Of a DNA stretch of 64,000 bases, positions 2,011 to 31,124 are shown in pieces (the stretch's first letter is position 1; the number at the start of each line of letters is the position of its first letter). The translations under genes and the position numbers were made by a program. Source of the stretch: Candidatus Gastranaerophilaceae bacterium (GTDB lineage Bacteria; Cyanobacteriota; Vampirovibrionia; Gastranaerophilales; Gastranaerophilaceae); contig JAZRSL010000038.1 of NCBI GenBank assembly GCA_045651505.1, positions 1,072 to 65,071 of the forward strand. Direction: 5' to 3'. Under the pieces are notes generated by a model. The model had not been told where the DNA came from. It was given only the letters and a program-made list of their open reading frames with translations, and did not search any database.

Positions 2011-2047
2011 AAAGAGCCTTTGCAAATATCAGCAAAGGCTCTTTTTT
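2011..2047. terminator. Bidirectional intrinsic terminator between convergent pckA and the 1139-aa gene
   Basis: AAAGAGCCTTTGC-aaatatca-GCAAAGGCTCTTT 13-bp stem flanked by A and T runs. Confidence 0.8.
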
Positions 2048-5000
2048 AATCATTTTCGTTTTTTACTTCTATTCTATGAGAAACATTATCCTCTTCATTC
2101 TCATTCTCAATAACAGATAGAGTTTCAACCTTACCCTCAGGGTTAGTGTATGTAATATTATGAACCGTTTCACCATCACCATTTACAAATCTTACTTTTG
2201 CATCAAAAGTTGTAGGTACAAGTTTTGCACCCCCATTGACAAGCTTTGACTTAGCCAGCCAATTCATAAAAGCAACACCACCACCTGCTGCAACTAAATT
2301 TTCTACATTACCTGCCTGTTGTGAAACAACAGCTTCAAGTTCACTATCTGTCATTCTCTGCAACTTAGACGCAGCTTCAACACCTTGAGTTACATTATCA
2401 AAGTTTTTGCTAGCATCACTTAAAGTAGAAGTAACTTCAGCCACTTGATTCGTTGCCTTTACACTTCTATATGCTTGAACAGCAGTTTTTGTTCCAAAGA
2501 AAGCTGCTACACCTGCAAAAGTACTAGTACTAAGCATTTCTAAAGGAATAATTTCTCCATTATTAAAAACAAAAAATTGGCCAGTGGACTGTAACGCGCT
2601 CTCTGTAATATAAAGGCCTGCTCTTGTGAAAAAGTTTCCACAATATGTATTACCCAATGCGACCTCATTAAAGCTCATTCCTGATACAACATGTCTAGGG
2701 AAAAGATTCATCATTATCCCACTTCCTAACATATTACATGTAGAAACTGTTGCTCCAAAAAACATCCCACCTGCTGCACTTTCTACAGAATCTTCTAGTG
2801 ACATATTTCCATTACTTAAAATACCATCTGCGGCTAATGAAGCAGTACCTGCCGCTAAAGAAACCCAAGCAACATTACCTAATAATGCTAAACTTGTACC
2901 TCCAGAGAATGGTGCACCAATAATTGCAATAGCAGTAGTAACCCCCATTACTAGGGCTTTAAATGCTGTATTATAAGAGTCATAATTACCAGCAACAGCT
3001 TCTAATTCTCTTATTGAATCCAATTTAAATTCACCTTTAAGTAAATGAATTATATTTTCATATGAAAGCTTAGAACCTACTAAACTTCTAAAATTAGATG
3101 CAGGATTCGAATCAATACCATTCACTTGTCCTTGTTCTCGGCTTAATGCTTGTGTAACATCTTTTTTATTATCAGTATTACCACCACAAGCCTCTATTCT
3201 TTCAGCAAACCAATTAAATACATTTTGAACAACATTTTCATCAGCTTCTAAATCATCCAAAGCTTCTCTTACTTTATCTAAGAGGAGATTAAATACATAT
3301 TGTAAGTAATCACCTACAACTTGAGGCAAGTCTGTCCTTTCTTTTTTATAATTAGCCTCATAGGCTGCTTTATCGAAAGTGCCGTCTTCATTGAATCTTA
3401 TTGAAGCAGTAAAAAGAGTCATTTCTTCAACTAAGCTTTCAACTTCACTACAAGTAGGATTTGAACTTAATTCGCTTTTCAACAATCCAAAAGGTATTTT
3501 TCTTAAGCTTTCATCTGGTGTCATTAAAAGCTTTCTATATAGTTTTTGCCCTTCTTCAGAGTCAAGCTCTAAGCCTACTATATCAGTAACAATTTCTTCA
3601 ATTCCATATTTAACATTTCCAAGCTCATTTATCTGAGAGTCAGATAAAACAGTTTTCAAGAAAAATTCATCAGAACCTGTACTTAATTGAACTGTTCTTC
3701 CAGAATCAAAAAGATTTATATTAAATTCATTTAATATAAGATGTTTTATTTCTGCATCAGTTTTTCCATTTTCTCTATATTTCGCAATAGCATTTATAGC
3801 TATTTCTTGTTGTTCTAGAGTTAAATTAGCTACTCTTGTATAAAATAAATTGTTTTCAGGTACAGCCTCAAAAGACAATTCTTCTAATCTTTCTCTAGTA
3901 TCATTACTTACTCTCATAGCTGTCGGATACTTTATAATTTGTCCGCTTTGTAGCTTTTCCTCAGTAAAATTGTCATTTAATACTATTAATTCAAACATTA
4001 ATTGATTAATTTCATTATTACTTGGATTAGAATTTTGATATTCAGCTATTAGAATATCTTTAGCTAAATCCCACAGTCTACTATAATTTTTTGTTAATGA
4101 AAAATCTAAAATTTCACTCGTTATTGCTGTTTTATATGATTGCTCTGCATAAAATTTCGTATATTGTTCTCTAGCTTCTTCTGAAGAAACCCTTGTTGTT
4201 ATTTGCTCACTGTCAGGAGAAAATTCGCCCACAACAAGCGCACTACTTCCGACATCCCTTGAATGATTAGGGTTTAATTTTTGCCACTCTTCTTCGAAAT
4301 TTTGCCAGCTCTGTCCTTCTTGCCCAAAACTCTTATACAAATCCCAAATTCCTTCACCATTTTGGAAATAAATTTGAGTATTGCCGTTACCGTCATACAT
4401 AACAGAATAAACTTTTTCACCGTCTTCAATCGTATGCGATAGCTTATTTACGCCACCAGAACCTATTTCACAAAATGTTTCTGTATTATAGACAATCTCT
4501 TCCTTATGAGTACCATCATTACTCATATAAGACTCTAAATAATAATAATTGTCTGTTGGCATTCCATCGTCTGTTAAAAATGGCAATTTATTATAAGCTC
4601 TTATACCGTCTTCGTCTTCTAGAACAACAGACCTTATATTTTCATCATTAAATTGTCCATTTTCATCTACTTCATTAACTGATATATAACGCACTGAACC
4701 ATCAGCAGCCGTTATTTGCATAACAACTATATTTTCTCCAGTATCAATCTCTTCACCATTTTGGTCTAATTCTTTTCGAGTATCTTCTCTATAAATTACA
4801 GTAAAAGAATCAATACCATTTATTTTATTCAATGCATAAAGAGGTTTGTTATCTTTATATTGGATCAAATACTCCATTACAAAACCTTCTTGATGCGACA
4901 TAATTCTAGCATAATCCAGATTACCATCTTTGTAATAAGATGTTTTTTCCATTGGAGGATTACTATGAATGATTTCTTCTTTCCTTACTAGAACACCACG

Positions 5001-5465
5001 CTCTTTGATTTCAGTAACTGAAACATAATATCCATCATTATTTGTATACCCTGTAAAACTTGCTTTTGGTAAACTATTACGTAAAATTTCATCTGTTTTA
5101 GTAGTATCCAAATACCCAATCTGAGAAACCTCTACAAATTTTTTAATATCCTCGACAGTAACGCCCATTAATTCTGAATTATTATTTATAAAAGTATTCA
5201 GTTCACTATCAGAAATTATACCGTCTTCGCCTGCACAACTTTTTAAAGTCTCAAAAACTGATTTCCATTCATTTTTTCTTTTATTATTAGTAACAGAAAG
5301 AGTGTTATCTCCATCTTGATCAAAAAATTCAATTAATTTCTGAAAATTTGGATTTTTTTCTAAACTTTCTCTATCCACATGTGAAAAGTTCTCAAGTAGA
5401 AATTTTTTATTTTTATTAAATTCAAAAGAAAAGTTATCTACCATAGTACCCTTTATCTTTAACAA
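2046..5465 (-). CDS. Giant orphan protein (1139 aa) with an EF-hand/dockerin-like Ca-binding pair, a beta-rich DG/Y repeat region, a helical region and a Gly/Ala-rich multi-pass hydrophobic core
   Basis: Long uninterrupted ORF. The N-terminus has FDQDGDNTLS and GEDGIISDSEL loops. The middle has repeated DG..Y beta motifs. Residues ~815-960 (MGVTTAIAIIGAPFSGGTSLALLGNVAWVSLAAGTASLAADG...GGMFFGATVSTCNMLGSGIMMNLF...) look like membrane segments. No signal peptide and no family I can name. Confidence 0.75.
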   Translation of the reverse strand: MLKIKGTMVDNFSFEFNKNKKFLLENFSHVDRESLEKNPNFQKLIEFFDQDGDNTLSVTNNKRKNEWKSVFETLKSCAGEDGIISDSELNTFINNNSELMGVTVEDIKKFVEVSQIGYLDTTKTDEILRNSLPKASFTGYTNNDGYYVSVTEIKERGVLVRKEEIIHSNPPMEKTSYYKDGNLDYARIMSHQEGFVMEYLIQYKDNKPLYALNKINGIDSFTVIYREDTRKELDQNGEEIDTGENIVVMQITAADGSVRYISVNEVDENGQFNDENIRSVVLEDEDGIRAYNKLPFLTDDGMPTDNYYYLESYMSNDGTHKEEIVYNTETFCEIGSGGVNKLSHTIEDGEKVYSVMYDGNGNTQIYFQNGEGIWDLYKSFGQEGQSWQNFEEEWQKLNPNHSRDVGSSALVVGEFSPDSEQITTRVSSEEAREQYTKFYAEQSYKTAITSEILDFSLTKNYSRLWDLAKDILIAEYQNSNPSNNEINQLMFELIVLNDNFTEEKLQSGQIIKYPTAMRVSNDTRERLEELSFEAVPENNLFYTRVANLTLEQQEIAINAIAKYRENGKTDAEIKHLILNEFNINLFDSGRTVQLSTGSDEFFLKTVLSDSQINELGNVKYGIEEIVTDIVGLELDSEEGQKLYRKLLMTPDESLRKIPFGLLKSELSSNPTCSEVESLVEEMTLFTASIRFNEDGTFDKAAYEANYKKERTDLPQVVGDYLQYVFNLLLDKVREALDDLEADENVVQNVFNWFAERIEACGGNTDNKKDVTQALSREQGQVNGIDSNPASNFRSLVGSKLSYENIIHLLKGEFKLDSIRELEAVAGNYDSYNTAFKALVMGVTTAIAIIGAPFSGGTSLALLGNVAWVSLAAGTASLAADGILSNGNMSLEDSVESAAGGMFFGATVSTCNMLGSGIMMNLFPRHVVSGMSFNEVALGNTYCGNFFTRAGLYITESALQSTGQFFVFNNGEIIPLEMLSTSTFAGVAAFFGTKTAVQAYRSVKATNQVAEVTSTLSDASKNFDNVTQGVEAASKLQRMTDSELEAVVSQQAGNVENLVAAGGGVAFMNWLAKSKLVNGGAKLVPTTFDAKVRFVNGDGETVHNITYTNPEGKVETLSVIENENEEDNVSHRIEVKNEND

Positions 5466-5540: not shown

Positions 5541-6269
5541 TTATTTTGTTAAAAAATCCAAAACACCATTAATAAATGTAAGAGGGTGAACAGGACATCC
5601 TGGAATATACAAATCTATAGGATATTTTTCTAAAAACTTACGATTTAGGTTTGTTGATTCTTGAAAAACTCCGCCTGAAATTGCACAAGCGCCAGCAAGA
5701 ATCACAACTTTAGGATCAGGTGTTGATTTATAGCAATCCTCAAGAGCATACGCCATGTTTTCAGAAATGGGGCCAGTAATTACTAAACCATCAGCGTGTC
5801 GTGGTGAAGCAACAAAATCAATACCAAATCTTCCCATATCAAAGTTACAGTTAGAACAAGCATTTAGCTCCATTTCGCAACCGTTACAACCTGCGGCAGA
5901 TACTTGTCTAAGCTTTAAAGACCTGCCAAATATTTTTTTAATCTCCTCTCTAGATTTAATTGCTATTTTTTCAAAATCTTCTGGAGTCATTCCTTCAGTA
6001 ATAACAAGAGTTTCTCTATTTGATGCAGATAACTTATAATAATTACTAAACTGAACAGCATCAGACTTACAAGCACCGCAAAGCGTACATTTGCCCATAT
6101 CAATTGATATTGGATTAGCTTTTAGAGCTCCTGTAGGACAAACTGATTCGTCAATTTTTCCATTTTTTAGTAATGGAAAGCCTCTAAACTGCTCTCTCAT
6201 AGGAGCATTTTGTATATCTGGTATGTATTGTTTTCCTTGAAAATATTTTAGTTTAAGTGTATCTAACAT
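5541..6269 (-). CDS. hyfI: NuoB/HycG/HyfI-like small subunit of a group-4-hydrogenase-related membrane complex, with an N-terminal single-[4Fe-4S] ferredoxin-like extension
   Basis: The C-terminal half carries the NuoB-family cluster ligands (AAGCNGCEME, AGACAISGG, IPGCPVHP). The N-terminus has VCPTGAL plus CTLCGAC, which is enough Cys for one extra cluster. Confidence 0.85.
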   Translation of the reverse strand: MLDTLKLKYFQGKQYIPDIQNAPMREQFRGFPLLKNGKIDESVCPTGALKANPISIDMGKCTLCGACKSDAVQFSNYYKLSASNRETLVITEGMTPEDFEKIAIKSREEIKKIFGRSLKLRQVSAAGCNGCEMELNACSNCNFDMGRFGIDFVASPRHADGLVITGPISENMAYALEDCYKSTPDPKVVILAGACAISGGVFQESTNLNRKFLEKYPIDLYIPGCPVHPLTFINGVLDFLTK

Positions 6270-6280
6270 CTTTATTTCCT

Positions 6281-7741
6281 TTATAAATCATTTCCGCAAT
6301 AAGATAAATTAAAGCTTTTATTACAAAGCGGAAAATCCGAGATTCCATTATTTCTTACTGCCATTGCAAGCATATACCAATTATTAAAAGAAGGATCTTT
6401 TATTTTATAACGTAAAAGTTCGCTATTAGAGCCTGTTACTGCAAAGTGAACAACTTCTCCTCTCCAGCCCTCAACTATAGATATTACAAAAGAATTTGGC
6501 TGTAAGTTATAATTTACATTAGTCTTTATTTCACTTTTTTCATCAATAAGTTGTTTCAAAAGTGCTTTTACAATCTTCATTGATTGCTTTATTTCTTTAT
6601 ATCTTAATTTAAATCGCGAATGCACATCACCATGAGCCTTGAATGGTTTAACAACATCAAGAGCTGTATAATACTTATCATTCATATCAAATCTTGAATC
6701 TAAATCAACCCCAGAAGCTCTCGCAGCCATGCCAACTGCACCTAACGCCTTTGCTGTTTCTGTGCTAACAGTTCCCGTTCTTTCAAGTCTTGATATAACT
6801 GTAGGTGACTTAAGCATCACTTTTGTTGTTCTATCAACAGTTTCAGCTACATCCTTTAATACATTAGTAATTTTTTCTGATAATTTTCTATCAATATCAA
6901 AATTAACACCGCCAATTTCAATTAAACCTCTGCCAAAACGGCTTCCTGAAATTTCAAGCATTGTATTAATTACCAAAGTTCTTGTAACTCCAAAAATTGA
7001 AGCACCCATTTGATAAGCTATATCTCCTGCAATTGCCCCCATATCACCAATATGTATAGCAATTCGTTCCATTTCTAATGCTATTCTTCTAATGAGTTCT
7101 GCTCTTTCTGTAATTTTTACATCTGCTAAAGTTTCCATAACTTGTGAGTATGCCATATTATAAGCTATTACAGAATCACCACAAACTGATTCCGCAAGAC
7201 GATTATTAAATTTATTTCCTTTTAAGAAGATATCCTCAACACCACGGTTTTGGTATCCAAGCATAATTTCAAGATCATAAACTTTTTCTCCGTGACACAT
7301 AAATCTAAAGTGTCCTGGCTCAATTACCCCAGCATGAATTGGTCCAACTGCCACTTGGTGAACTTCATCCCCACGCATTTCAAAAAATGGGTACTTATCC
7401 TGATTTTTTCGAAGTGGTTTTAACCAAGGGTGGTTTAATGGTTCGATTCCAAACTCTTCATAGAATTCTCTCTCGAAAACATGAAACTGAGGGTAAATTT
7501 GAGTAAAAGATTCATAGCTTTTAGCTTCCTTGTCAAAAAGAGTTGATGTTACATATAGCTTTCCAACTTTATCATCAGCTAAAACCACAAAAAGTCTTAC
7601 ATTCTCAAACTCTTGTTTACCAAAGAAACCCAAAAGACGCATATTAAATTTACTAAAATCCTCTTTAATTTCTTCTATCGATATTGTAGGAATATTGAAA
7701 GTATTTATTCTTTTATTATTTTCAGTAATTACCCAATTCAT
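6281..7741 (-). CDS. hyfG: NuoC/NuoD-like (HycE/HyfG-like) large subunit; canonical NiFe CxxC ligands appear degenerate
   Basis: Contains GPIHAGVIEPGHFRF, which is typical of HycE/HyfG-type large subunits. The L1 position reads SVCGDSVIAYN where RxCGxCxxxH is expected. The C-terminus reads DFPLCNKSFNLSYCGNDL where DPCxxCxxR is expected. Confidence 0.85.
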   Translation of the reverse strand: MNWVITENNKRINTFNIPTISIEEIKEDFSKFNMRLLGFFGKQEFENVRLFVVLADDKVGKLYVTSTLFDKEAKSYESFTQIYPQFHVFEREFYEEFGIEPLNHPWLKPLRKNQDKYPFFEMRGDEVHQVAVGPIHAGVIEPGHFRFMCHGEKVYDLEIMLGYQNRGVEDIFLKGNKFNNRLAESVCGDSVIAYNMAYSQVMETLADVKITERAELIRRIALEMERIAIHIGDMGAIAGDIAYQMGASIFGVTRTLVINTMLEISGSRFGRGLIEIGGVNFDIDRKLSEKITNVLKDVAETVDRTTKVMLKSPTVISRLERTGTVSTETAKALGAVGMAARASGVDLDSRFDMNDKYYTALDVVKPFKAHGDVHSRFKLRYKEIKQSMKIVKALLKQLIDEKSEIKTNVNYNLQPNSFVISIVEGWRGEVVHFAVTGSNSELLRYKIKDPSFNNWYMLAMAVRNNGISDFPLCNKSFNLSYCGNDL

Positions 7742-14788: not shown

Positions 14789-16738
14789 ATGACGATTAGA
14801 AAACTTACTGTGGCAGCTGCAATTGCCGTTGGTATAGCAACGTGTTCGTTTAATACGGTAATGGCAGCTTGCCCATGCGACCAGCACCCGATTGTTTCTC
14901 AATCTAATTGTGGTTGCAACGAATTACCAACTGTAACTGGTGCGGCTTGTCCTTGTGATCCAAAACCAACACCGTGTTGCGATATGCCAAAATGTGAACC
15001 AGATCCAGTTCCATCTTGTGCATTATGTCCTAATACCAGTGGCTTTGACAGAGAAAACATGAAGCAAGTTTACGCTTACCCTAATGGTATCTACGGTTAT
15101 AACAACTACGTAGGTACTCGTGCTGATTCTGTATACTCATCAGAAGGTTTTGGTGTTTGCCGTGACAACAAGCAAATGTTAACTCAACAAGTTATGGGTA
15201 CTACAATTGCTCAAGATGGCCAAATTACTGGCGCTGCTTCAAACATTCCTTGTCTTAACGACAAGAGAAGCCATAACGGTATTCCTATTATGAGAGATGA
15301 AAGCAGAATGGACGGTATGGGATGTCCTATCCAAATGAGCACAGCTAACTCAATTCAGGCTGTTAAGAAAACCCTTACACCTTTCGATTTATCACCGTTT
15401 GCGAATTTAACTGGTGCTGCTGCTCCAGCTCAATTACAAATGTTCCCTGACGTTCCAAATAGCTATTGGGCATCTTGTCCTATCGATAAATTAGCAACAA
15501 ATGATGTTGTAGTAGGCTATCCAGATAGAATGTTTAAACCATCTAAAAATATCTCTAGAGCAGAATTCGCAACTATGATAGTAAAAGGCTTCGATAAAGA
15601 TATGTATTCTTGTGCACCTGAAAAATTATTCTCAGACGTTCCTACTAACCACTGGGCCAATTCAGCTATTACAGTTGCTGTTCACCAAAACTTACTCAAA
15701 GGCTATCCAAATGGAACATTTATGCCTAATCATAACGTAACAAGAGTAGAAGCTCTTTGTGCATTATCAAAAGGTATCAATTGCCCTCAAGTTGACAAAT
15801 GTAAAGCTCAAGAAATTTTATCAAAATACTCAGACGGTAATTCTGTACCTGAATGGGCACAAATACCAATCGCAACTGCATTAGATAAAGGGGCTTTAAA
15901 TGATTCACCAAACCCAAGAATGATTGCGCCGTTTAAAGATGCAACTCGTGCCGAAATAGCATCAATGTTACAAAATATTCGTGTAAACGCTGGTATTGAC
16001 AAAAATCCAGTGACTGCAAATAATGATTGTCCAATTTGTCCGGTTGATAAAAAGGCATTTATCGAAAATGAAGAGTTAGTTAAAATCCCAACACTTCAAT
16101 TAGAATTCAAAGACCAAGTAACTGCTAAATCTTCACACGTAGGCCAAAAATTTGCAGCAAAAACACTTGAAGATGTAACAATTGATGGTAAATTATTCCC
16201 TTGTGGTTCAAATGTACACGGTAAAGTTGTTGAAGTTATTCGTCCATCAGGATGTCAAAAAGGTGCTTTAAAACTTGCATTTACAGATATTGAAAACTGC
16301 GGTTGCAAAGCAAAATTACCAAGACAAATTTTAACAGCTCAAATTGATAAATCTAATACGCCAAATATTGTTTCAAGACTAGTAACTGCTCCATTTACTT
16401 GGGCTGGCTCTCTTGTAGGTATTGTAGGTAGAACAACAGGTGGTATGTTAACTACTCTTGGTAACGCTGTTGAAGACGTATCAACTGGTACTGGTATCGC
16501 ATTGGGTGAAGTATTCCAAGGTCAATTACCAGCTGCGGGTAGAAGTGCTTACGACGTTGTTAAGGATACAATCAAAGCTCCAATTGACTTAACTAGAACG
16601 GCTCTATCAGGTACAATGGGCTTATTCCAAACAACAGGCGACGAAGTTGCTTACTTAGTTGATGCTAAAGGCTTCAAAATCTCAGCTATTAATCCGAAAG
16701 AACACGTAACAATTGCTTTCGGCTGTAACGGTCAGTAG
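14789..16738 (+). CDS. Secreted SLH-domain envelope protein with a Cys/Pro-rich N-terminal segment
   Basis: Strong RBS (TAAGGAGG) and signal peptide MTIRKLTVAAAIAVGIATCSFNTVMA. Three SLH-type repeats are present: FPDVPNSYWASCPIDKL...RAEFATMIVK; FSDVPTNHWANSAITVAV...RVEALCAL; VPEWAQIPIATAL...RAEIASML. Confidence 0.85.
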   Translation: MTIRKLTVAAAIAVGIATCSFNTVMAACPCDQHPIVSQSNCGCNELPTVTGAACPCDPKPTPCCDMPKCEPDPVPSCALCPNTSGFDRENMKQVYAYPNGIYGYNNYVGTRADSVYSSEGFGVCRDNKQMLTQQVMGTTIAQDGQITGAASNIPCLNDKRSHNGIPIMRDESRMDGMGCPIQMSTANSIQAVKKTLTPFDLSPFANLTGAAAPAQLQMFPDVPNSYWASCPIDKLATNDVVVGYPDRMFKPSKNISRAEFATMIVKGFDKDMYSCAPEKLFSDVPTNHWANSAITVAVHQNLLKGYPNGTFMPNHNVTRVEALCALSKGINCPQVDKCKAQEILSKYSDGNSVPEWAQIPIATALDKGALNDSPNPRMIAPFKDATRAEIASMLQNIRVNAGIDKNPVTANNDCPICPVDKKAFIENEELVKIPTLQLEFKDQVTAKSSHVGQKFAAKTLEDVTIDGKLFPCGSNVHGKVVEVIRPSGCQKGALKLAFTDIENCGCKAKLPRQILTAQIDKSNTPNIVSRLVTAPFTWAGSLVGIVGRTTGGMLTTLGNAVEDVSTGTGIALGEVFQGQLPAAGRSAYDVVKDTIKAPIDLTRTALSGTMGLFQTTGDEVAYLVDAKGFKISAINPKEHVTIAFGCNGQ

Positions 16739-19861: not shown

Positions 19862-20416
19862 TTACATACTTAATGAAATCAAAACAAAAGAGGTCAAAAC
19901 TAACACTGTAATAGTAAACGCTATTAATAGCCTTACTGCGGGGTGAAACCCCAAAACCGCCTCTTCTTCAAGTTCAAGTTGACGTAAAATAGATTTAGAA
20001 AAATCTTTTTTTGCGTCATCTTTTGTTTTCTTAAAAGAATCACTCATAATCCTTCTTATATTGTAATTATCTTCTAATTCTTTTCGTGCTTTTTTATTAT
20101 TTATAGCAAATTTTTTAATTTTCAAATTTTCTTCATCAGACAATTCGTTATCTAAATAAGCCGATAAATTATTTTTAAAAACTCTATAATGTAGCGAAGT
20201 AGCTTCCTCCAAATTTTGCTTAGACGTCAAACACTTTTCTTCTAATTCCAAAGATCCATGCATATCTTTTAACATAGTACTAATTATTTCGAACTTCGCC
20301 TTGCAAGTCGCACAATCTTTAATATGCTCCTCAACCTGCTTCTTTAAATTACTACTTAAATCTCCATCAATGTAAAACGATATTAAAACATCCATTTGTG
20401 CACAAGTTAACTTCAT
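19862..20416 (-). CDS. Anti-sigma factor (zf-HC2 type) with a C-terminal TM anchor
   Basis: N-terminal H-x3-C-x2-C motif (EEHIKDCATCKAKF), a C-terminal hydrophobic helix, and a position immediately downstream of the ECF sigma gene. Confidence 0.75.
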   Translation of the reverse strand: MKLTCAQMDVLISFYIDGDLSSNLKKQVEEHIKDCATCKAKFEIISTMLKDMHGSLELEEKCLTSKQNLEEATSLHYRVFKNNLSAYLDNELSDEENLKIKKFAINNKKARKELEDNYNIRRIMSDSFKKTKDDAKKDFSKSILRQLELEEEAVLGFHPAVRLLIAFTITVLVLTSFVLISLSM

Positions 20417-20426
20417 TTTAATCTCC

Positions 20427-21011
20427 TTATATAAAATCTTTTAATTCTTGTTGTAATCTTAATCTTGCTCTTGAAATCCTTGATTTAACAGTTCCAATAG
20501 CAGTATTAGTAATTTTTGCTATGTCCTCATAACTAAGTCCTTCATATTCCCTTAATACAATCGTTAACCTTAAATCTTTAGGCAAAGTCATTAAAGCTAC
20601 CTTCACTAATTTTTCAAACTCTGCAAATAAACATTTTTCACCAGGCTCACACCCCATTTTATCTTTTATTAATTTTATTTTTTCTTCGTCATAATCGAAA
20701 ATTTCACTAGGTTTTTTACGCAAATAATCATTATAGATATTAACAACAATCTGATTCAGCCAAGGTTTAAACCTTGTTGAATCTTTTAACATATGCAACG
20801 ATTTCGCCATTTTTAACAATGCATCTTGTGTCAAATCAGAAACATCTTCTTTTTTGTCACATAGATGAGCAAAAATCGCATAAACTTCTTTTTGTGTCTT
20901 CTTTATTAATTCTTCCATTGCCCTAATATCGCCTTTTTGAGCAAAAAGAATAATAGATGCAATGTCAGCTTTTTTATAATTAGCTTTGGACATAACGTAT
21001 TGTAGATGCAA
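20427..21011 (-). CDS. ECF-type RNA polymerase sigma-70 family factor
   Basis: Region 2 (DLTQDALLKMAKSL...FKPWLNQIVVNIYNDYLRK) and region 4 HTH (LSYEDIAKITNTAIGTVKSRISRARLRLQ). The true start may be the internal MSKANYKK. Confidence 0.85.
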   Translation of the reverse strand: MHLQYVMSKANYKKADIASIILFAQKGDIRAMEELIKKTQKEVYAIFAHLCDKKEDVSDLTQDALLKMAKSLHMLKDSTRFKPWLNQIVVNIYNDYLRKKPSEIFDYDEEKIKLIKDKMGCEPGEKCLFAEFEKLVKVALMTLPKDLRLTIVLREYEGLSYEDIAKITNTAIGTVKSRISRARLRLQQELKDFI

Positions 21012-22639: not shown

Positions 22640-22668
22640 TTGACTCACCCCTATTCATCTGCTATAAT
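22640..22668 (+). promoter_or_regulatory. Near-consensus sigma-70 promoter of the pilin-like gene
   Basis: TTGACT (22640-22645), exactly 17 nt, TATAAT (22663-22668). The ORF-track TTG start at 22640 is the -35 box. Confidence 0.75.
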
Positions 22669-22711
22669 AGATATATGGTCCGTAATTTATTATAGAGAAG
22701 AAAGGAATATT

Positions 22712-23443
22712 ATGATGAAAAAGAATGGTTTTACTCTTGCTGAGGTTTTAATTACCCTTGCAATCATCGGTGTTGTAGCTACTATGACATTACCAACATT
22801 AATGACAAATACTGGCGAACAACAAGCTAAAACAGGCTTAAAAAAAGGTATTAACATTTTAACAGAAGCTGCTCAAATGCATGAAACTCTTGAAGGTTAC
22901 AACTTCGCATCTTTAACTGGTACAAATAGTATGGATGATATTTCAACTACAACTATAACAGGAACAGATGGCTCAACTGCTAATGTAAACGGAGTAAACT
23001 CTTTAGTAGGTTTATTAAAAGAAAGAACAAAAATAGACTATAGCAAAACTAAGAGTGATGATATTCAAATAGGTGGTGCTGAAGACGCAAATGCTAAAAC
23101 TATCGTTTTTGCAGATGGTACCGCTTTGATATTTGACCCATCTGCACCTCTTGCAACAGACGTGTCTCAAATTAACGCTGGAGATAACTTGCCTAATGGA
23201 TTTAAAGCTATATTTGACACAAATGGAGCTAAAGGTCCAAACCTACTATCAAACTGCGTAGGCTTATTAGCTGGTGGCGATGATGAAGGACAAGTAAATA
23301 GCGAAGGTGAAGCTGTAGTAGTTGATGTTTCTCAATGTAATGATAAAGCTAAGCGTGTAATTAAGGACCAATTCCAAATTCAATTAAGAGGAAATGTTGT
23401 TCAACCTGTTGGTGCAGCAGCTACTTGGGCATTTGCTAACTAA
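22712..23443 (+). CDS. Prepilin-type N-terminal cleavage/methylation domain protein (type IV pilin / pseudopilin-like)
   Basis: MMKKNG|FTLAEVLITLAIIGVVATMTL is a class-III signal peptide with the invariant Glu at +5. RBS AAAGGA lies upstream of ATG 22712. Confidence 0.85.
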   Translation: MMKKNGFTLAEVLITLAIIGVVATMTLPTLMTNTGEQQAKTGLKKGINILTEAAQMHETLEGYNFASLTGTNSMDDISTTTITGTDGSTANVNGVNSLVGLLKERTKIDYSKTKSDDIQIGGAEDANAKTIVFADGTALIFDPSAPLATDVSQINAGDNLPNGFKAIFDTNGAKGPNLLSNCVGLLAGGDDEGQVNSEGEAVVVDVSQCNDKAKRVIKDQFQIQLRGNVVQPVGAAATWAFAN

Positions 23444-24730: not shown

Positions 24731-24758
24731 TTGAACTTTTGTTACAAATTGTTACAAT
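24731..24758 (+). promoter_or_regulatory. Extended -10 promoter of the chaperone/usher-like operon
   Basis: TTGAAC (24731-24736), 16-nt spacer ending in TGT, TACAAT (24753-24758), 30 nt upstream of the first gene. Confidence 0.55.
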
Positions 24759-24788
24759 TACAGTGGATATCCCAATTGGAAAAATTTC

Positions 24789-25652
24789 ATGAAAAGATTA
24801 TTACTCACAACATTTACTGCAATTACGTTTGCGTGTATACCATCAGAGGCTTCTATGGTAGTTTTTGACTACATTGGAGAAACTTATGTTACACCTAATA
24901 ATATTGAGCGTACATTACTTGTAAATAGCGATGATGGGAAAAGCTATAACGTAGCTATAAGGCCTTTGGAAGAAGCTATCACCAGCCACGACGGTAAATT
25001 CTCTATCCCGCTTGAGTATTTATTTATTAATAACACTAGGGAAGATGTGTATTTCAAATACAATGAATTTTCAAATGTATTATGGCATCAAGACAACAAC
25101 GGTGCGCCTAAGAATATGACAGCTAAAATTAAAAACTTCGGTATCGTGCCTGCTGGAACATACAGTATAATGCTTGAGCTCCAAGCTACAGATATTCAAA
25201 CTGGCGAAATAGCTTCAGCATCTAGTTTTAATCTACAATTTATAGTACCAATCGTACACGAACTAAACACTTATTCTGAAACACCTAAAATAGTTGTATC
25301 AGCAAAAGATGTATTTAAAAAATCACAAAAAATAACCAATGAGGTTTCTCCTATGGTTTATATCCGTTCTAATACCGATTGGGTACTTACTCTAGATACA
25401 ACTGATTTTGGTGATGCGATAGGTGATTATTACGTTCGTACAACCGCTGGTTCAGCTAAGGTTACTTCAAGATTACAAGAAAGAGCTAAAATTACTCCAG
25501 ATAGAGAAATTATTTTAGCCAGAGGAAAAGCACCAGCAGAAAACGATTTTGTTACTGTTGAATTTTCTGTAGAAAGTCCTGCTAATGACGTTTTAAGGGC
25601 TGGTGATTATGTAAATAGAATTAAATATGTACTTAGAGAGGGTCAAGAATAG
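24789..25652 (+). CDS. Secreted beta-rich protein, putative fibre subunit/adhesin (operon gene 1)
   Basis: Signal peptide MKRLLLTTFTAITFACIPSEA. 287 aa and beta-rich, ending in AGDYVNRIKYVLRE. The stop overlaps the next start (TAGTG). Confidence 0.7.
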   Translation: MKRLLLTTFTAITFACIPSEASMVVFDYIGETYVTPNNIERTLLVNSDDGKSYNVAIRPLEEAITSHDGKFSIPLEYLFINNTREDVYFKYNEFSNVLWHQDNNGAPKNMTAKIKNFGIVPAGTYSIMLELQATDIQTGEIASASSFNLQFIVPIVHELNTYSETPKIVVSAKDVFKKSQKITNEVSPMVYIRSNTDWVLTLDTTDFGDAIGDYYVRTTAGSAKVTSRLQERAKITPDREIILARGKAPAENDFVTVEFSVESPANDVLRAGDYVNRIKYVLREGQE

Positions 25653-26473
25653 TGAAGAAGAAATTTTTAGGATTATTAATAGCGCTATCAGTTACAGTAT
25701 CGGCATACGCCTCAATTACTGTAACACCTACTAAAGTTGAAATAAATGCAAATAAAATTAGAAATAATTACGCAACAAGAGCTATTGAAGTAAAAGGATC
25801 TCCAGATAAACCTATGCGTTATAGAGCTTATACAGGCTATTTCAAGGTAAAAGAAAACTCAGAAGTAGTTTTTGCTGATGGAGAAAAAGATGAACATAAC
25901 ATTCAATCAAAAATCCGTTTTGTACCATCAGAATTTACAATTCCAGCTGGACAAGCTCAAAAAGTTAGAATCAACGTTGCAAACCTAAAAACATTGCCAG
26001 AAGGTGAATCTAGAGCAATCGTTTATATCGAAGACGTTGATGCAAAAGAATACAACGTACCTGTTTCCGCTGGAATCGGCGCACAACTAGTTCTAAAAAC
26101 TCGTATAGCTATTCCTGTTTACGTTGATAAAGGTAATTTTACAAAAAAAGCTGATGTTGAATCATTCGATATTGTTCGCAAAAATGACGGACTATATACA
26201 AAAATGAAGGTCGTTTCAACTGGCAACAGCAGAATAAAATATCACGGTATGATACAAATCATCGAAGGTAAAAAACTTATTGACGAATACACACTTGAAT
26301 CAAAAACTGTTTCTGGCGGTAGCTATTTAATAGCAGAACAAAAAGTAGAAACAGAAAAAATCTCTAAATCCGGTGATTATACTCTAAGAATGATTTTCTA
26401 TTACCTTGATGAAAAAGATACAAGAAAAAATATAAAGAAAGATGCAATATTAAGAATTACGGGTGAAATTTAA
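25652..26473 (+). CDS. Putative periplasmic PapD/CsuC-like pilus chaperone (operon gene 2)
   Basis: GTG start overlaps the upstream stop, with a GAGAGGG RBS. Signal peptide MKKKFLGLLIALSVTVSAYA. Two Ig-like halves show a chaperone-like strand pattern (ITVTPTKVEINA; FVPSEFTIPAGQAQKVRINV; ESRAIVYIEDV; LVLKTRIAIPVYV). Confidence 0.6.
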   Translation: MKKKFLGLLIALSVTVSAYASITVTPTKVEINANKIRNNYATRAIEVKGSPDKPMRYRAYTGYFKVKENSEVVFADGEKDEHNIQSKIRFVPSEFTIPAGQAQKVRINVANLKTLPEGESRAIVYIEDVDAKEYNVPVSAGIGAQLVLKTRIAIPVYVDKGNFTKKADVESFDIVRKNDGLYTKMKVVSTGNSRIKYHGMIQIIEGKKLIDEYTLESKTVSGGSYLIAEQKVETEKISKSGDYTLRMIFYYLDEKDTRKNIKKDAILRITGEI

Positions 26474-26496
26474 AAAACGAAAGGAAGGTACCCCAG

Positions 26497-27183
26497 ATGA
26501 AAATCTCAAAAATCACAAAGATTTTGCCTTTAGCGCTCGCATTATCTATGACTGGCGTTTTTGCGACAGAATCGACAACAGCGACTGTTAACTATCAGTT
26601 ATCATTAGAAGACTACATTAAAATTACAACTTCTACTGAAGAGCTAAGCTCTACAACAACATTTGGCGCAAACTACGGTTCTATCACTATCGATTCAGAT
26701 ATGACTGGTAAGTTTAACATTATTTCAAATGCAAAAACAAGAACTATGGAATTAAAAGCAACTAATGTTGATGGTGAAAACCCATTATATGCTGTAACTT
26801 TTGATAACGCAGCAGGTACTGGTACAGCAAAATTAGTTTTTGCTCACACAACAGAAATTCCTGATGGTACATCAATATCTAACATTACTGGTGAATCACC
26901 AGCTGCAGATAGCAACCCAAATGCTATCGCTTTTAACGTTACTTTAGGTCAAACTTATGCTCACGGCCCTGGAAGTATTGAAGGCGCTTGGGATGGCACT
27001 AACAAAAAAATCGTTTATACAATGAACAATGGTGTAAGTGATTTAACAATTAAAGTTGGTGGTAAAAACTTAGAAGACACATTCAATACACAAGACCAAA
27101 GCGGTACTTATAAAGCTGTATTGACACTAACTGACGTTGGCCCTGTAACAGCAGGCGGAGCTGATCCAGATCCACAAGGTTAA
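26497..27183 (+). CDS. Secreted Thr/Ser-rich putative fibre subunit (operon gene 3)
   Basis: RBS AAAGGAAGG and signal peptide MKISKITKILPLALALSMTGVFA. 228 aa, with a C-terminal SGTYKAVLTLTDV strand followed by a Gly/Pro/Asp tail. Confidence 0.7.
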   Translation: MKISKITKILPLALALSMTGVFATESTTATVNYQLSLEDYIKITTSTEELSSTTTFGANYGSITIDSDMTGKFNIISNAKTRTMELKATNVDGENPLYAVTFDNAAGTGTAKLVFAHTTEIPDGTSISNITGESPAADSNPNAIAFNVTLGQTYAHGPGSIEGAWDGTNKKIVYTMNNGVSDLTIKVGGKNLEDTFNTQDQSGTYKAVLTLTDVGPVTAGGADPDPQG

Positions 27184-27192
27184 TGCTAATAG

Positions 27193-27837
27193 GTGATTAA
27201 TTTGAAAAAGCTAATTTTACTAAACAGTTTAATATTAGTAATGAGTGTATTATTTAATACACCAAAAGCTTTTGCTGAAGCTACAGCGGTACAGACATTA
27301 TATTCGTCTGTACCGTCAGCTGTAGCTATTAATAAAACAGAAACAAATACTCAAGGAAACATCGACCCCGTATCCGGTAATATTCTTAATGACTTAAAAA
27401 CATCTTTCAATTTAAGTATAAACAGTTCAGAAGGTGAAACTAAAACCTACGATTTTTATTTTTACGCAAGAGTAAAAACTATTGATGGCGAAGAATCAGC
27501 TTTTGGGCCAAATGACATAATTTTATTTGGAAATACTTCTTCTTTTCCATCACAAACTGCGGTTAATAACGCAAAAAATGGTATCAGCGAAAATATGGAC
27601 GTAATTGGATACAAAGTCAAAATGATACCATCTTCAAATAATGATATGGTTGTTGAATACACTTCTACAAGTGAATACCAAGAATGCTATAAAGTTAGTT
27701 TCCAAAACGGAGCTACTAATGGAACTGTTGAGCAAATAATTAATGGTAGCCCTGTTACTGGAACTTATCTAATAGGTGAAGATTCTTCCGGCCCATATTC
27801 AACAACAGTTTATATAACAGCAATGCAAAAATTATAA
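27193..27837 (+). CDS. Secreted putative fibre subunit (operon gene 4)
   Basis: Signal peptide ...LILLNSLILVMSVLFNTPKAFA. 214 aa and beta-rich, with a C-terminal SGPYSTTVYITAMQKL. GTG start 27193, or alternatively TTG 27202. Confidence 0.65.
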   Translation: MINLKKLILLNSLILVMSVLFNTPKAFAEATAVQTLYSSVPSAVAINKTETNTQGNIDPVSGNILNDLKTSFNLSINSSEGETKTYDFYFYARVKTIDGEESAFGPNDIILFGNTSSFPSQTAVNNAKNGISENMDVIGYKVKMIPSSNNDMVVEYTSTSEYQECYKVSFQNGATNGTVEQIINGSPVTGTYLIGEDSSGPYSTTVYITAMQKL

Positions 27838-27931
27838 TAAATATCCCATTGAGCGGATGCTCAAAATAAGTGAATGAAAGTTAAATAGAGAAAAAGCAAG
27901 GATTTGCTAAAAACCAAGCGACGGATGGCTT

Positions 27932-28005
27932 GAAGTGGAACTTTAAAAGATTAGAGTGAGTTAATTAATCCCTCACACTAACCCTCACCTCAAGGAGAGG
28001 GAAGG
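27932..28005 (+). repeat. Structured intercistronic spacer (hairpin repeats) before operon gene 5
   Basis: Imperfect hairpins TAGAGTGAG-ttaattaatc-CCTCACACTA (27952-27980) and CCCTCACCT..AGGAGAGGG (27982-28001). The second overlaps the RBS of the 1014-aa gene. Related to the 23511-23592 unit. Confidence 0.5.
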
Positions 28006-28013
28006 TTCAAAAA

Positions 28014-31000
28014 ATGTTAAATAGAATCAAATACAGTTTAATAGTAGCTTTGATAAGCGCATGTTTGGTAAAACCTGCGTTAGCTGCTAATGATTCTACA
28101 ATTTCATATGTTGCAATTAACGATAAAGTTTATGAAGATATCGAACTTGTCGTATCAGATGGTGCTGAAATTCTAGTACCATTTAAACAACTTGCAGACA
28201 TTTTCGAAATCCACTATTCTGCTAACCGTGTCGATAAACTAATTAACTTCACCACTTATGACGGAATAAATGGGGTTATAAACAATCGTGGCGTCTTTAT
28301 TAACGACCAATTATACCAAAACAGAATCCCAGTATTCATTCAACAAGGGATTATGGACAACATAATAAATGAAGCTTATATTAAGGCTTCTGTTGCAGAA
28401 CGTATTTTTGGCATAAAATTAACAACAGATTATTCAAACATAACAATTAGCGCCCACGTTGATAGAGATTTAAGAATTCTACGTACTGCAAAATCTCTTA
28501 TTGAAGATGAAAATGCACCTAAAGCACATCAAGATGTTATAGCCCCTAAGAAAAACGGTGTTATTTCTTTAAATAAAATAGGCCTGCATAACAATTTAAT
28601 CAACGACAATATGTCGTCTTCCGGCGTTAATTATCGTTCTACAAACTCAACAGTATCTGGCAACACAAGAGCAACTATATCTGGTAACGCTTTTTCTGGT
28701 AAATATAGATTAGAATCAAATATGTACCATTATGATAATAATGCATTTATGTTTGGTGGTTTCACTGGTACGTACATGAATAGTTTTATGTATCCAAAAG
28801 ACGGTAAAAAATATTTTTACGAATTAGGTCGTGTGAAAGGTAGACGTGACGTTGATGCCGCAATAGGTACAAATATTTTTGGCGCTCAAGTTTGGAACTA
28901 CGATTATGATAAGACTCCAGCTAGACAGTTAAACGGCTACGTTAAACCAAGCAGTTTGGTACGAGTAACAATAAATGATAATGAACCAGTTACCCTAAGT
29001 ACATATGCTGGATATTACACTCTTTCTGATATGAATATTAGCGGAAAGGTAGAAAAAGTTAAAATCGAAGAAATAAACGAAGACGGAACAATTGATATCC
29101 TTAAAGAAGAAAGATATTCTTTATATGGAGATAGACCTTTTGCCAATGAATCAAGAGGTTCTGCATATGCCGGTGTTTGGGGTTATCAAAACCGCTTATT
29201 CAGAGAAGGTAATAGTATCTATTATGGCAACAACAAAAAAGCTACTGCTGGTGGTTATTATCAATATGGTATCAAAGATAATGTAACTTTTGAGTCAAAG
29301 CTAACTGCAGATAAAATTTATGAAAAAACTAACTCTAAAGTATTTTATCAAATGCCTACTAATGATACATTACTTGTAATCGGTACACAAAAGAACGTTA
29401 ACTATCAAGAAGGTGCAACAACTCTAAACAGTATTGATTACGTTAGCAAAAAAGATCCTAACTTAAAATTAAGAGGAACTGCAGGTGGAAGTATCGCAAA
29501 AGACATTAGAACAGAAGATACTCATGCCGGTTATATAGTTAAAGGTACTGCTGAATATTCTAAAAACCTTAAAAATTATGCTTGGAAAATTTTCCAGCCT
29601 AAAACTGCTCAAGCAAAATTAGAGGCTTATCATACTTCACCAGATTTCTACATTGCTAGTTCAGATTCGACATCTAGAAACGACAGAACTGGTGGTAAAG
29701 CTACTGGTGCGGTTAGCTTTAATTCAACTAATGTTAGCGGTAGCTATAATAAATATTACTCAAACACAAATCATCGTTACCAAGGCGGAACTCTTAAATT
29801 TGATGAATACAGTATCAATGCTTCATCAAGAATACCAAAAGTTGCAACTGCAAGATTTAGTATGTTCCATAGAAGAGGCTCAAACGATTTAGGCAGAAAT
29901 AGAAACTACAATTATGACGCAAATCTAACTAGAAATATTGGTAGAGGTGCTATTTTCCAAGCAGGACACAGGCAAAGTTTATATGATACTAACTATGATA
30001 TAGAATCTGCTTTAAATAGAGATTATTACTCAAAATACTTAGATACTTATATGGACTTATCTACACCTTTACCTAAAAATATCGGTAGGTTCCGCTTAGG
30101 ACATAATTTTATTGACTACAAAACAAGCTCATATACAAACAACTACAACATGTTCCGCTTTGGATACACATTCCCAACTTGGAAAAGAATAACACTAGGA
30201 CTAGGCTGGGGATTCCGTTATCACGGACAAGGTGGACAGGATTTCAATGTTAATATGGGTTACAGGGCTAAATCAGGCCAAATGGTCAATGTTGGCTATC
30301 AATACTCTAAAAACGGTGGTTACTTTATCGATAATATGTTTACGCCAACAACAAACCGTCATTCTGTAAACTTCATTTTTAATGACGCTTATCAATTATT
30401 CCATAATGGCTTCAAGTCAATTGGCGACGAAAACGAAGATAAAGGTATTTTTGAAGCTATTGTATTTATTGATGCAAATAAAAATGGTAAATATGATAAG
30501 AAAATTGATATCCCAGTGAAAGATGTTCCAATAATTACAAGCTGGTCAAGTGATATTGAATATACAAATCGTTCTGGTAAATTATCGTCAGCAGCTCTTC
30601 CTAGTGGTGTATATAAAATTTCACTTGATATGAACTCTTTACCAATTACTGTAGCTCCTGTTTCAAATGATTTAGCTACAAGAATGGTTAAAATTGATAA
30701 CGGATTAACTACAAAACTTGAACTCCCTCTTACAAGTACCGTTGGTAGTGTCTCTGGCGTATTAAAAATTACCGATGATTTTAAACGTGATTTAAAAATA
30801 ACTGATTTTGTTGTAATCATAACCGACCAAGACGGAAAAGAAGTTAACTACTCAACTGTAACTTCTTCTGGAGAATTCTATATCTCTGGTCTTGCTCCAG
30901 GTAAATATACACTAAAACTTGATGATAGATATATTGATGCTTATGGTCTAGAAAAATTGCAAAACTTGAGCGAAAGAACAATATTTATACCATATGATTA

Positions 31001-31058
31001 CGAAAATCCTACAGATGTTATGAATCAAAACTTAGAGTACAGGACATTGTCTCTATAA
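28014..31058 (+). CDS. Large secreted outer-membrane protein, putative usher-like pore (operon gene 5)
   Basis: Signal peptide MLNRIKYSLIVALISACLVKPALA. N-terminal copper-amine-oxidase-N-like domain (ISYVAINDKVYEDIELVVSDGAEILVPFKQLADIF). About 600 aa of Tyr/Gly/Asn/Arg-rich alternating sequence typical of a beta-barrel. Two C-terminal CarboxypepD_reg/Cna-B-like domains (SGVYKISLD; SGEFYISGLAPGKYTLKLDD). Confidence 0.6.
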   Translation: MLNRIKYSLIVALISACLVKPALAANDSTISYVAINDKVYEDIELVVSDGAEILVPFKQLADIFEIHYSANRVDKLINFTTYDGINGVINNRGVFINDQLYQNRIPVFIQQGIMDNIINEAYIKASVAERIFGIKLTTDYSNITISAHVDRDLRILRTAKSLIEDENAPKAHQDVIAPKKNGVISLNKIGLHNNLINDNMSSSGVNYRSTNSTVSGNTRATISGNAFSGKYRLESNMYHYDNNAFMFGGFTGTYMNSFMYPKDGKKYFYELGRVKGRRDVDAAIGTNIFGAQVWNYDYDKTPARQLNGYVKPSSLVRVTINDNEPVTLSTYAGYYTLSDMNISGKVEKVKIEEINEDGTIDILKEERYSLYGDRPFANESRGSAYAGVWGYQNRLFREGNSIYYGNNKKATAGGYYQYGIKDNVTFESKLTADKIYEKTNSKVFYQMPTNDTLLVIGTQKNVNYQEGATTLNSIDYVSKKDPNLKLRGTAGGSIAKDIRTEDTHAGYIVKGTAEYSKNLKNYAWKIFQPKTAQAKLEAYHTSPDFYIASSDSTSRNDRTGGKATGAVSFNSTNVSGSYNKYYSNTNHRYQGGTLKFDEYSINASSRIPKVATARFSMFHRRGSNDLGRNRNYNYDANLTRNIGRGAIFQAGHRQSLYDTNYDIESALNRDYYSKYLDTYMDLSTPLPKNIGRFRLGHNFIDYKTSSYTNNYNMFRFGYTFPTWKRITLGLGWGFRYHGQGGQDFNVNMGYRAKSGQMVNVGYQYSKNGGYFIDNMFTPTTNRHSVNFIFNDAYQLFHNGFKSIGDENEDKGIFEAIVFIDANKNGKYDKKIDIPVKDVPIITSWSSDIEYTNRSGKLSSAALPSGVYKISLDMNSLPITVAPVSNDLATRMVKIDNGLTTKLELPLTSTVGSVSGVLKITDDFKRDLKITDFVVIITDQDGKEVNYSTVTSSGEFYISGLAPGKYTLKLDDRYIDAYGLEKLQNLSERTIFIPYDYENPTDVMNQNLEYRTLSL

Positions 31059-31094: not shown

Positions 31095-31124
31095 AGCCGC
31101 TTCCCAAAAGGCGGCTTTTTTTTT
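31095..31124. terminator. Bidirectional terminator
   Basis: AGCCGC-ttcccaaaag-GCGGCT followed by T9, between convergent genes. Confidence 0.7.

Follow-up and report, generated by a model that had tools for sequence, protein, structure and literature searches.

What do five consecutive genes, each coding for a secreted protein, build in a diderm bacterium that lies outside the Proteobacteria? The question is posed by a stretch of 64,000 nucleotides (nt) from a Candidatus Gastranaerophilaceae bacterium (assembly GCA_045651505.1, contig JAZRSL010000038.1), hereafter the window, in which the genes, here termed g1 to g5, lie co-directionally on the forward strand between positions 24789 and 31058. 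A sequence-only reading of the window had taken them for an operon of secreted proteins constituting a chaperone/usher-like fiber pathway with an atypical pore protein, and all five open reading frames (ORFs) are indeed present. The host, a relative of the cyanobacteria, lives in the gut and does not photosynthesize. Chaperone-usher (CU) pili are the best-understood adhesive fibers of Gram-negative bacteria, and surveys for them depend on recognizable usher or pilin sequences. Here, we propose that the operon is likely to specify a highly diverged fiber assembly system of the CU type in the Gastranaerophilales (Melainabacteria), which agrees with the initial view that a nonproteobacterial diderm here possesses chaperone/usher-like machinery for secretion and assembly.

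The five genes and their products

The first gene, g1 (24789 to 25652), codes for a protein of 287 amino acids (aa). It shares one base with g2 (25652 to 26473; 273 aa, GTG start) in the sequence TAGTG, which combines the stop codon of the former with the start codon of the latter; this overlap, and the gap of 23 nt that separates g2 from g3 (26497 to 27183; 228 aa), are as first described. As called mechanically, g4 begins at a GTG codon (27193 to 27837; 214 aa), and the gap of 9 nt originally reported between g3 and g4 holds for that start. However, all orthologs begin with MKK or LKK, which corresponds to a TTG codon at 27202 with a ribosome-binding site, GGTGA, ahead of it; hence, the true product of g4 is probably of 211 aa and the gap probably of 18 nt. 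The last gene, g5 (28014 to 31058), is by far the largest, with 1014 codons for amino acids. Each of the five products begins with a signal peptide in which a positively charged n-region leads into a hydrophobic core, with cleavage at a site of the A-x-A type (the peptide spans residues 1 to 20 in g2 and 1 to 24 in g5); the orthologs retain it, and the view of an all-secreted set thus stands. Pfam and NCBIfam searches made directly with the five proteins yielded no hit above threshold.

The product of g2 is a chaperone of the PapD superfamily

The component of the operon that is most readily identified is the product of g2, which is a homolog of the two-domain periplasmic chaperones of the PapD superfamily. 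Its AlphaFold2 (AF2) model, built from an alignment of 34 sequences, displays two beta-sandwich domains with a predicted local distance difference test (pLDDT) score of 86. In a Foldseek search of the Protein Data Bank (PDB), the top match of this model is the WxLIP protein of Enterococcus (E value of 1.7e-11), which is followed by a series of CU chaperones, namely CsuC (3e-10), CfaA (1e-9), CupB2, FimC, PapD, and Caf1M (with E values up to 1e-8), that span all three classes of CU systems. The best match among the CU chaperones, CsuC (6fqa), is recovered with a TM-score of 0.53 on the target.

The relationship can also be traced in sequence profiles. The Pfam PapD_N model matches the window protein weakly (E = 0.013, below the cutoff). 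When 1.8 billion representative proteins were searched with a profile, 712 relatives were recovered, and among 94 diverse full-length representatives of these, Pfam detects PapD_N in 16, fn3_5 in 25, and WxLIP_PGBD in 8. Of the g2 searches against PDB sequences, only that with the broad profile of the 94 relatives was informative, matching WxLIP (E = 2e-6) and CfaA (E = 3.2e-4), the latter being the only CU chaperone with an E value below 1e-3. Further, hhalign aligns the family profile (A3) with six chaperones of Escherichia coli (FimC, YadV, SfmC, ElfD, EcpB, and EcpE) at a probability of 96.7% and an E value of 3.1e-10 across 194 columns that cover both domains, whereas a control with reversed sequences gave an E value of 0.29. 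The AF2 model, the fold search, and the family alignment thus agree on the two-domain PapD/CsuC-like chaperone that had been proposed for g2. A further search for homologs, started from the broad chaperone alignment, recovered only the close clade again, close members of which are named "molecular chaperone" or "P pilus assembly chaperone PapD" in two public sources.

Some of the conserved positions may parallel those of the known chaperones. Position 28, which aligns with R8 of FimC, is K or R in all 34 sequences of the clade. R151 never varies, and K149 occurs in 33 of the 34 sequences; both lie in a strand with hydrophobic residues in alternation (L146, L148, I152, I154, V156, and V158) that resembles the G1 strand, the register of which, relative to K112 of the classical chaperones or to the cleft residues Arg89 and Tyr196 of the nonclassical ones (PMC4654587), could be fixed only with the structure of a complex. 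The g2 family lies between the CU chaperones and WxLIP.

The product of g5 has a predicted usher-like architecture

In the model of the g5 product (33 sequences; pLDDT of 63.8 and predicted TM [pTM] score of 0.44), four segments can be distinguished. An N-terminal, presumably periplasmic, domain (residues ~27 to 148; 28092 to 28457; pLDDT of 68 to 85) precedes a beta-barrel (residues ~184 to 765; 28563 to 30308), for which DSSP assigns about 24 long antiparallel strands and the pLDDT is mostly 70 to 90 in residues 470 to 750. A small beta domain of short strands that resembles a plug (residues ~275 to 370; 28836 to 29123) is inserted in the barrel after the first five to six strands, the strand count and the position of the insert being approximate. 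Two C-terminal sandwiches of the prealbumin/CarboxypepD_reg type (residues ~813 to 1000; 30450 to 31013), modeled at low confidence, are supported by Pfam and hhalign. At the level of the fold, and within the limits of a model of moderate quality, this succession of an N-terminal domain, a plugged barrel, and two C-terminal domains is that of the ushers. Indeed, FimD and PapC account for all of the best 17 PDB matches of the model (E values from 4e-15 to 3e-8), and they share its domain order; only beyond them come SdrD (2e-4), through the C-terminal domains, and then porins, near 1e-3.

These results change the initial description of g5 in several respects. That it comprises a large beta-barrel and, at its C terminus, two prealbumin-like domains agrees with the model, but the assertion that the pore does not resemble FimD or PapC was mistaken as regards fold and architecture and is correct for the sequence only. 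The "copper-amine-oxidase-N-like" label given to the N-terminal domain has behind it only marginal matches of Cu_amine_oxidN1 in two homologs (E values of 0.07 and 0.24). The assignment of CarboxypepD_reg/SdrD_B domains falls short for the window protein itself (25.7 bits against a cutoff of 32.3) but holds for a homolog that scores above it (37.2 bits).

By sequence, the link with ushers is much fainter. At E values up to 10, neither g5 nor its distant homologs are matched by the Pfam Usher (PF00577), PapC_N, or PapC_C models or by the usher models of NCBIfam; phmmer and HMM searches of PDB sequences with g5 found no usher; and hhalign comparisons of the g5 profile with FimD alone, or of a narrow-clade profile with five E. 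coli ushers, are not significant. When homologs of 22 to 30% identity are added to the profile, the comparison with the five ushers attains a best E value of 5.2e-4 at a probability of 31%, against 0.11 for the reversed-sequence control. This best alignment pairs residues 725 to 969 of g5 with 646 to 847 of the FimD precursor, a segment that we take, from the FimD structure (3RFZ), to consist of the last barrel strands and both C-terminal domains. Two others (E values of 0.02 to 0.03) pair residues 190 to 362 and 215 to 388 with 181 to 357 and 204 to 382, the region 204 to 382 presumably corresponding, in the same structure, to the early barrel strands and the plug. Weak as they are, the aligned segments follow one another in g5 as they do in FimD. 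In view of the weakness of these alignments, we do not claim homology with the ushers from sequence alone.

Taken together, the model and the fold matches suggest that g5 resembles the ushers in fold and that it is atypical in sequence and size rather than in architecture; it exceeds the E. coli ushers (841 to 878 aa) by about 150 to 200 aa and carries CarboxypepD_reg/SdrD_B-like (prealbumin-like) domains at its C terminus. We predict that it resides in the outer membrane. In the public records that we looked up, its homologs go by "hypothetical protein" alone, and we saw no source name for the g1 and g3 clusters. A scan of metagenomes with the g5 alignment recovered mostly relatives of 55 to 70% identity, plus two C-terminal fragments on short contigs and one truncated remnant. 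One metagenome contig (L059) carries a free-standing ORF of 364 aa (5803 to 6897) that comprises the last barrel strands and both C-terminal domains of g5 at 44% identity; with no chaperone or subunit genes nearby, it looks like the remnant of an usher-like gene.

The small secreted proteins are candidate fiber subunits

The three remaining proteins fall into two groups. Those encoded by g3 and g4 are paralogs (hhalign probability of 99.4%, E = 5.4e-21), while g1 is unrelated to them by hhalign. As had been noted for the window proteins, all three end in a strand with a G-x-Y motif, and this motif proves invariant in the orthologs (G203/Y205 in g3, G200/Y202 in g4, and G272/Y274 in g1). The pattern common to the three is G-x-Y-x-[AN]-x-hydrophobic, and the last strand of g3 and g4 reads, more fully, D-x-x-G-x-Y-x-A-x-[LV]-T-[LF]-T. 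In g1, the motif occurs twice in the form (P)AG-x-Y, at residues 121 to 125 and 271 to 274, and the protein appears to be made of two modules. An N-terminal stretch in which hydrophobic residues alternate is present in all three proteins; in g3 and g4, it lies shortly past the signal peptide, and in g3, a variable linker precedes it. The window version of g3 further possesses a tail of 12 to 16 residues rich in Gly, Pro, and Asp (27136 to 27183) that it shares with its closest relative (L001, 9497 to 9547); the other g3 orthologs lack this tail after the conserved last strand. Cysteines are scarce in these proteins, with none in g3 and one in g4. The single cysteine in the signal peptide of g1 is not conserved in its orthologs, and we therefore rejected g1 as a candidate lipoprotein.

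No known subunit family could be recognized among them. In 81 orthologs (29, 29, and 23 for the three proteins), Pfam detects neither Fimbrial (PF00419) nor SCPU nor DUF4402 at E values up to 0.1, and it finds no member of the WxL family in g1, g3, or g4. The g1 and g3 profiles match no PDB sequence; hhalign comparisons of all three, with g1 taken whole and in halves, with 13 fimbrial subunits of E. coli align the signal peptides alone; and the same method detects no relation with DUF4402. From their genomic context and the pattern of their motifs, we infer that g1, g3, and g4 are putative subunits with a pilin fold that would polymerize by donor-strand exchange.

The cassette is conserved as a unit

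Homologs of g2 and g5 are nearly all derived from metagenome-assembled genomes of Melainabacteria or Gastranaerophilales or from records labeled "bacterium." Scanning one genome per species furnished 40 loci, at which the five proteins were compared by tblastn. The titled records among these belong to Melainabacteria, Gastranaerophilales, and "Cyanobacteria bacterium SIG," with one labeled uncultured Acinetobacter sp., and the locus closest to that of the window is from SIG31. The order g1-g2-g3-g4-g5, first seen in the window, recurs without exception in the 36 loci whose contig spans the whole cassette; as for the remaining four, g4 falls under the tblastn threshold in one (L038), and the contig ends within the cassette in three. 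The same order was also found in further metagenome contigs. In contrast, the genes that flank the operon in the window are almost never present at the related loci. Conserved order amid unconserved flanks points to the cassette itself as the unit under selection.

Within this unit, the proteins diverge to different extents. Identity of the orthologs to the window proteins is 57 to 91% for g5, 45 to 87% for g1, 45 to 84% for g2, 27 to 73% for g3, and 32 to 59% for g4, and the mean column identities of the three small proteins are 72% (g1), 52% (g4), and 40% (g3). The usher-like protein is thus the most conserved, followed by g1 and the chaperone, while g3 and g4 evolve fastest, as would be expected if the latter two were exposed at the cell surface.

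Related cassettes in other uncultured bacteria

More distant cassettes help define what is essential in the system. One of them (L044) consists of three genes, which code for a chaperone (30% identity), a 211-aa homolog of g3/g4 (hhalign probability of 95%, E = 3e-8), and a g5 homolog of 1056 aa that is 30% identical over its full length; g1 is absent. At two other loci, a g5 homolog adjoins a chaperone gene (L066, 1031 aa, 22% identity, E = 1e-42; L068, 1326 aa, 23% identity, E = 3e-31). From these cassettes, the minimal unit appears to be a chaperone, a small subunit, and a long usher-like protein, and g1 and the duplication that gave rise to g3 and g4 are additions made in the Gastranaerophilales.

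The same three-part layout recurs with a different type of small protein. In L064 (1711 to 6786), DUF4402 proteins are encoded with a PapD_N chaperone and a 1056-aa protein that lacks a Pfam usher domain, and in L067 (3231 to 8991), they accompany a chaperone with a weak fn3_5 match and an 856-aa protein that likewise lacks such a domain; in L065 (501 to 1821), a DUF4402 protein and a PapD_N chaperone are found where the contig ends. The chaperones of all three are matched by the g2 family profile. Their DUF4402 subunits, on the other hand, are not detectably related to g3 or g4, and the barrel regions of the large proteins cannot be aligned with that of g5 by BLAST, although profiles of the large proteins of L064 and L067 match the g5 group in the plug-like region (E = 2.3e-4) and, more strongly, in the C-terminal domains (97.9%, E = 3e-13). 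The literature that we searched makes no mention of DUF4402. Its occurrence next to a chaperone and a g5-like protein suggests that DUF4402 may be the pilin family of an unannotated usher-type system, and these distant cassettes, with their g5-like proteins of 856 to 1326 aa, show that the window's operon belongs to a wider unannotated branch.

Relationship to known systems and alternative explanations

Several observations weigh against a CU-type fiber system. The best structural match of g2 is not a CU chaperone but WxLIP, a surface protein of Gram-positive bacteria. The sequence methods do not establish that g5 is homologous to the ushers, with an hhalign probability that never exceeds the value given above, and its model, besides being of moderate quality, attains TM-scores to ushers of only 0.2 to 0.35; such low scores are expected of a multidomain protein modeled at this quality, and they limit the strength of the claim. 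Further, g1, g3, and g4 match no Pfam family or PDB sequence, E. coli fimbrial profiles align with their signal peptides only, and the tail of about 16 residues in the window's g3 does not fit the classical anchoring of the C-terminal carboxylate in the chaperone cleft. Finally, the organism is known from metagenomes only. We compared the cassette with the systems that it might represent instead.

The alternative that fares best grants the chaperone and the usher-like protein their identities and dispenses with the fiber. The small proteins could reach the surface as monomers or as a short cap complex with no donor-strand polymerization, for instance, as surface antigens or S-layer accessory proteins. 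Polymerization is indeed deduced from context in our proposal, the subunits match no pilin family, and the extension of g3 beyond its last conserved strand also speaks for this alternative. However, every characterized chaperone/usher pair assembles polymers, which is established knowledge for CU systems (PMC4654587), and the duplication and fast evolution of g3 and g4, together with their alternating N-terminal stretch and C-terminal G-x-Y strand, are typical of fiber subunits. Hence, we regard export without a fiber as unlikely.

A second alternative is that the operon is an ordinary member of the archaic (sigma) family, of the Csu/CupE type. Of the CU classes, this one alone has been reported from beyond the Proteobacteria, Cyanobacteria included (PMC4654587), and archaic systems have been described in Cyanobacteria and Deinococcus-Thermus (PMC4654587, PMC10104325), so that a CU pathway in this lineage would not be new in kind. 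The layout is also comparable, as Csu of Acinetobacter baumannii and CupE of Pseudomonas aeruginosa combine several small subunits with a two-domain chaperone and one usher, and it is CsuC that heads the CU chaperones in the structural comparison of g2. Nevertheless, Usher, PapC_N, and PapC_C are absent from g5 and SCPU from the subunits even under lenient thresholds, and the cysteines that are described as invariant in archaic pilin domains (PMC4654587) have no counterpart in a g3 devoid of cysteine and a g4 with one. In addition, the chaperone is about 40 aa longer than those of Csu and CupE, the usher-like protein has its extra length and prealbumin-like C-terminal domains, and the gene order differs, being here g1, chaperone, two subunits, and usher. 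The absence of SCPU, Fimbrial, and Usher matches from Pfam searches agrees with the sequence-only reading in that this is not a standard Csu/sigma operon, and we consider membership in the archaic family very improbable.

The third alternative takes its cue from WxLIP (DUF916-DUF3324), which is encoded at WxL loci of Enterococcus and Lactobacillus and, like g2, consists of two tandem Ig-like domains. WxLIP has been proposed to bind its partners by strand insertion; it is held by a C-terminal transmembrane helix, and its partners are WxL-domain proteins on the peptidoglycan of Gram-positive bacteria (PMC10599100). The g2 product might accordingly be a surface scaffold that engages its partners through beta-strands, beside a g5 that is an unrelated porin; that WxLIP tops the g2 matches by both fold and PDB-sequence profile and that WxLIP_PGBD is detected in 8 of the 94 distant relatives speak for such a complex, but WxL loci belong to monoderms, with a membrane-anchored protein and no usher, whereas g2 is predicted to be soluble (its C terminus, ...AILRITGEI, forms no hydrophobic helix) and is encoded beside an usher-like gene in a diderm with an SLH outer membrane protein, no WxL domain occurs in g1, g3, or g4, and g5 matches ushers specifically, not porins, all of which leaves this the least credible of the three.

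Other types of pili could be set aside directly. Type V pili, the FimA/Mfa fibers of Bacteroidota, are made of lipoprotein pilins with a Cys at +1 after the lipobox and involve no usher; they were rejected, as all five signal peptides end in A-x-A-type signal peptidase I sites and an usher-like gene is present. Sortase-assembled pili were excluded by the diderm host and the absence of an LPXTG motif, and TasA fibers and type IV pili were excluded by the absence of matching families, the prepilin gene that lies near the operon not being syntenic with it.

What remains is the relation of the proposed system to the CU classes proper. With the classical type 1 (FimA-H/FimC/FimD) and P (PapD/PapC) pili, it shares the usher fold matches and domain order and the alignable chaperone, including the basic residue at the position of FimC R8, but sequence identity in the structural alignments is 10 to 13%, and the subunits match neither PF00419 nor a fimbrial profile. 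With the alternative pili CFA/I (CfaA) and ECP (EcpB), it has in common that structures of CfaA rank high among the fold matches of g2, whereas no similarity of the subunits was detected. As judged from its sequences, then, the cassette fails to display the features of the archaic, classical, and alternative classes alike. The alpha/beta/gamma/kappa/pi/sigma scheme was itself built on recognizable usher sequences. We tentatively suggest, at somewhat short of an even chance, that g5 and its relatives represent an unclassified, deep-branching CU clade outside this scheme. Such a clade would be distinguished by ushers of 856 to 1326 aa that differ in their N-terminal domain and end in prealbumin-like domains, by chaperones intermediate between those of CU systems and Gram-positive WxLIP, and by at least two new pilin families, g3/g4 and DUF4402; it would be widespread in uncultured diderms and would provide a lineage-conserved surface fiber in gut Melainabacteria.

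Noncoding elements of the operon

Upstream of g1, at a distance of 30 nt, lies the promoter-like site that had been pointed out in the initial description (TTGAAC, 16 nt, and TACAAT with a TG extension; 24731 to 24758, forward strand), which, from its position, may serve the operon. The site exists as described; however, a scan of the region found 28 such sites against 31 ± 5.7 expected from shuffled sequences, and with no enrichment, the scan lends it no statistical support.

The spacer between g4 and g5 had been called hairpin-rich. Its length of 176 nt is confirmed, but it folds only modestly better than shuffled sequences (z = -2.27, with 3 of 200 shuffles folding equally well). One hairpin in it, CAAGC-GACGGATG-GCTTGA (27915 to 27933, forward strand), occurs only once in the window and recurs in 10 related loci, where it likewise lies between g4 and g5 in the same place and on the same strand, while the remainder of the spacer diverges. 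An Rfam scan of the operon gave no family match, this hairpin included, and no T-run follows it on the forward strand. Placed ahead of the usher-like gene, it may act in the processing or stability of the mRNA or be bound by a protein, and, more speculatively, it might tune how much subunit is made relative to usher. Directly after g5, 37 nt past its stop codon, a hairpin described as strong, with the features of an intrinsic terminator (8 bp with 5 GC pairs followed by a T9 run; 31095 to 31116, forward strand), closes the operon.

Genomic neighborhood in the window

The operon is flanked by a gene for a PHP-domain protein and one for an HD-domain protein, both on the other strand. A prepilin with an N-terminal methylation motif is encoded 1.3 kb upstream (22640 to 23443, forward strand), outside the conserved cassette, and an SLH-domain protein is encoded further upstream (14789 to 16738, forward strand); both fit a diderm host of the Melainabacteria with type IV pili. 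About 4 kb upstream of the operon, a pair of genes on the reverse strand (19862 to 21011) codes for proteins that resemble an extracytoplasmic function (ECF)-type sigma factor (194 aa) and a zinc finger anti-sigma factor (184 aa), the latter with an apparent C-terminal membrane helix, as judged by reading the sequence. Two long ORFs elsewhere in the window are poorly covered by known families, one of 1139 aa (2046 to 5465, reverse strand) having zero Pfam matches and one of 1305 aa (56580 to 60497, forward strand) matching, in its C-terminal 200 residues only, adenosine deaminase.

Proposed mechanism and implications

If the operon is a CU-type system, as we think likely, its workings could be envisaged as follows. 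All five products would be exported by Sec. In the periplasm, the g2 chaperone would bind g3, g4, and probably also g1 while these are still unfolded, its G1 strand most likely serving as the donor, and would deliver them as complexes to the periplasmic N- and C-terminal domains of g5, which would act as the usher. At its plug-gated barrel of about 24 strands, the subunits would polymerize by strand exchange, and the growing fiber, presumably adhesive, would be extruded to the cell surface. The exposed shaft might consist of the variable paralogs g3 and g4, and the conserved, two-module g1 might serve as a tip adhesin or another specialized subunit or as an accessory protein.

Of such structures, genome papers on Melainabacteria name flagella and type IV pili only, and the literature that we searched links no CU system to the lineage. 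To our knowledge, gut Melainabacteria have no cultured gut representative. If the proposed function is correct, the cassette would add a conserved candidate adhesin system to the flagella and type IV pili of these bacteria. As the chaperone is the only component of the operon that is even faintly visible to sequence tools, the assignment, should it hold, would also widen the known reach of a familiar pathway, and it points to related, unannotated cassettes of DUF4402, chaperone, and large-protein genes in other uncultured bacteria. In evolutionary terms, the system offers an intermediate from which the relationships of PapD-like chaperones, WxLIP, and ushers may be approached. The occurrence of fast-evolving g3 and g4 next to a conserved g1 would furnish a test case for antigenic variation as against conserved receptor binding.

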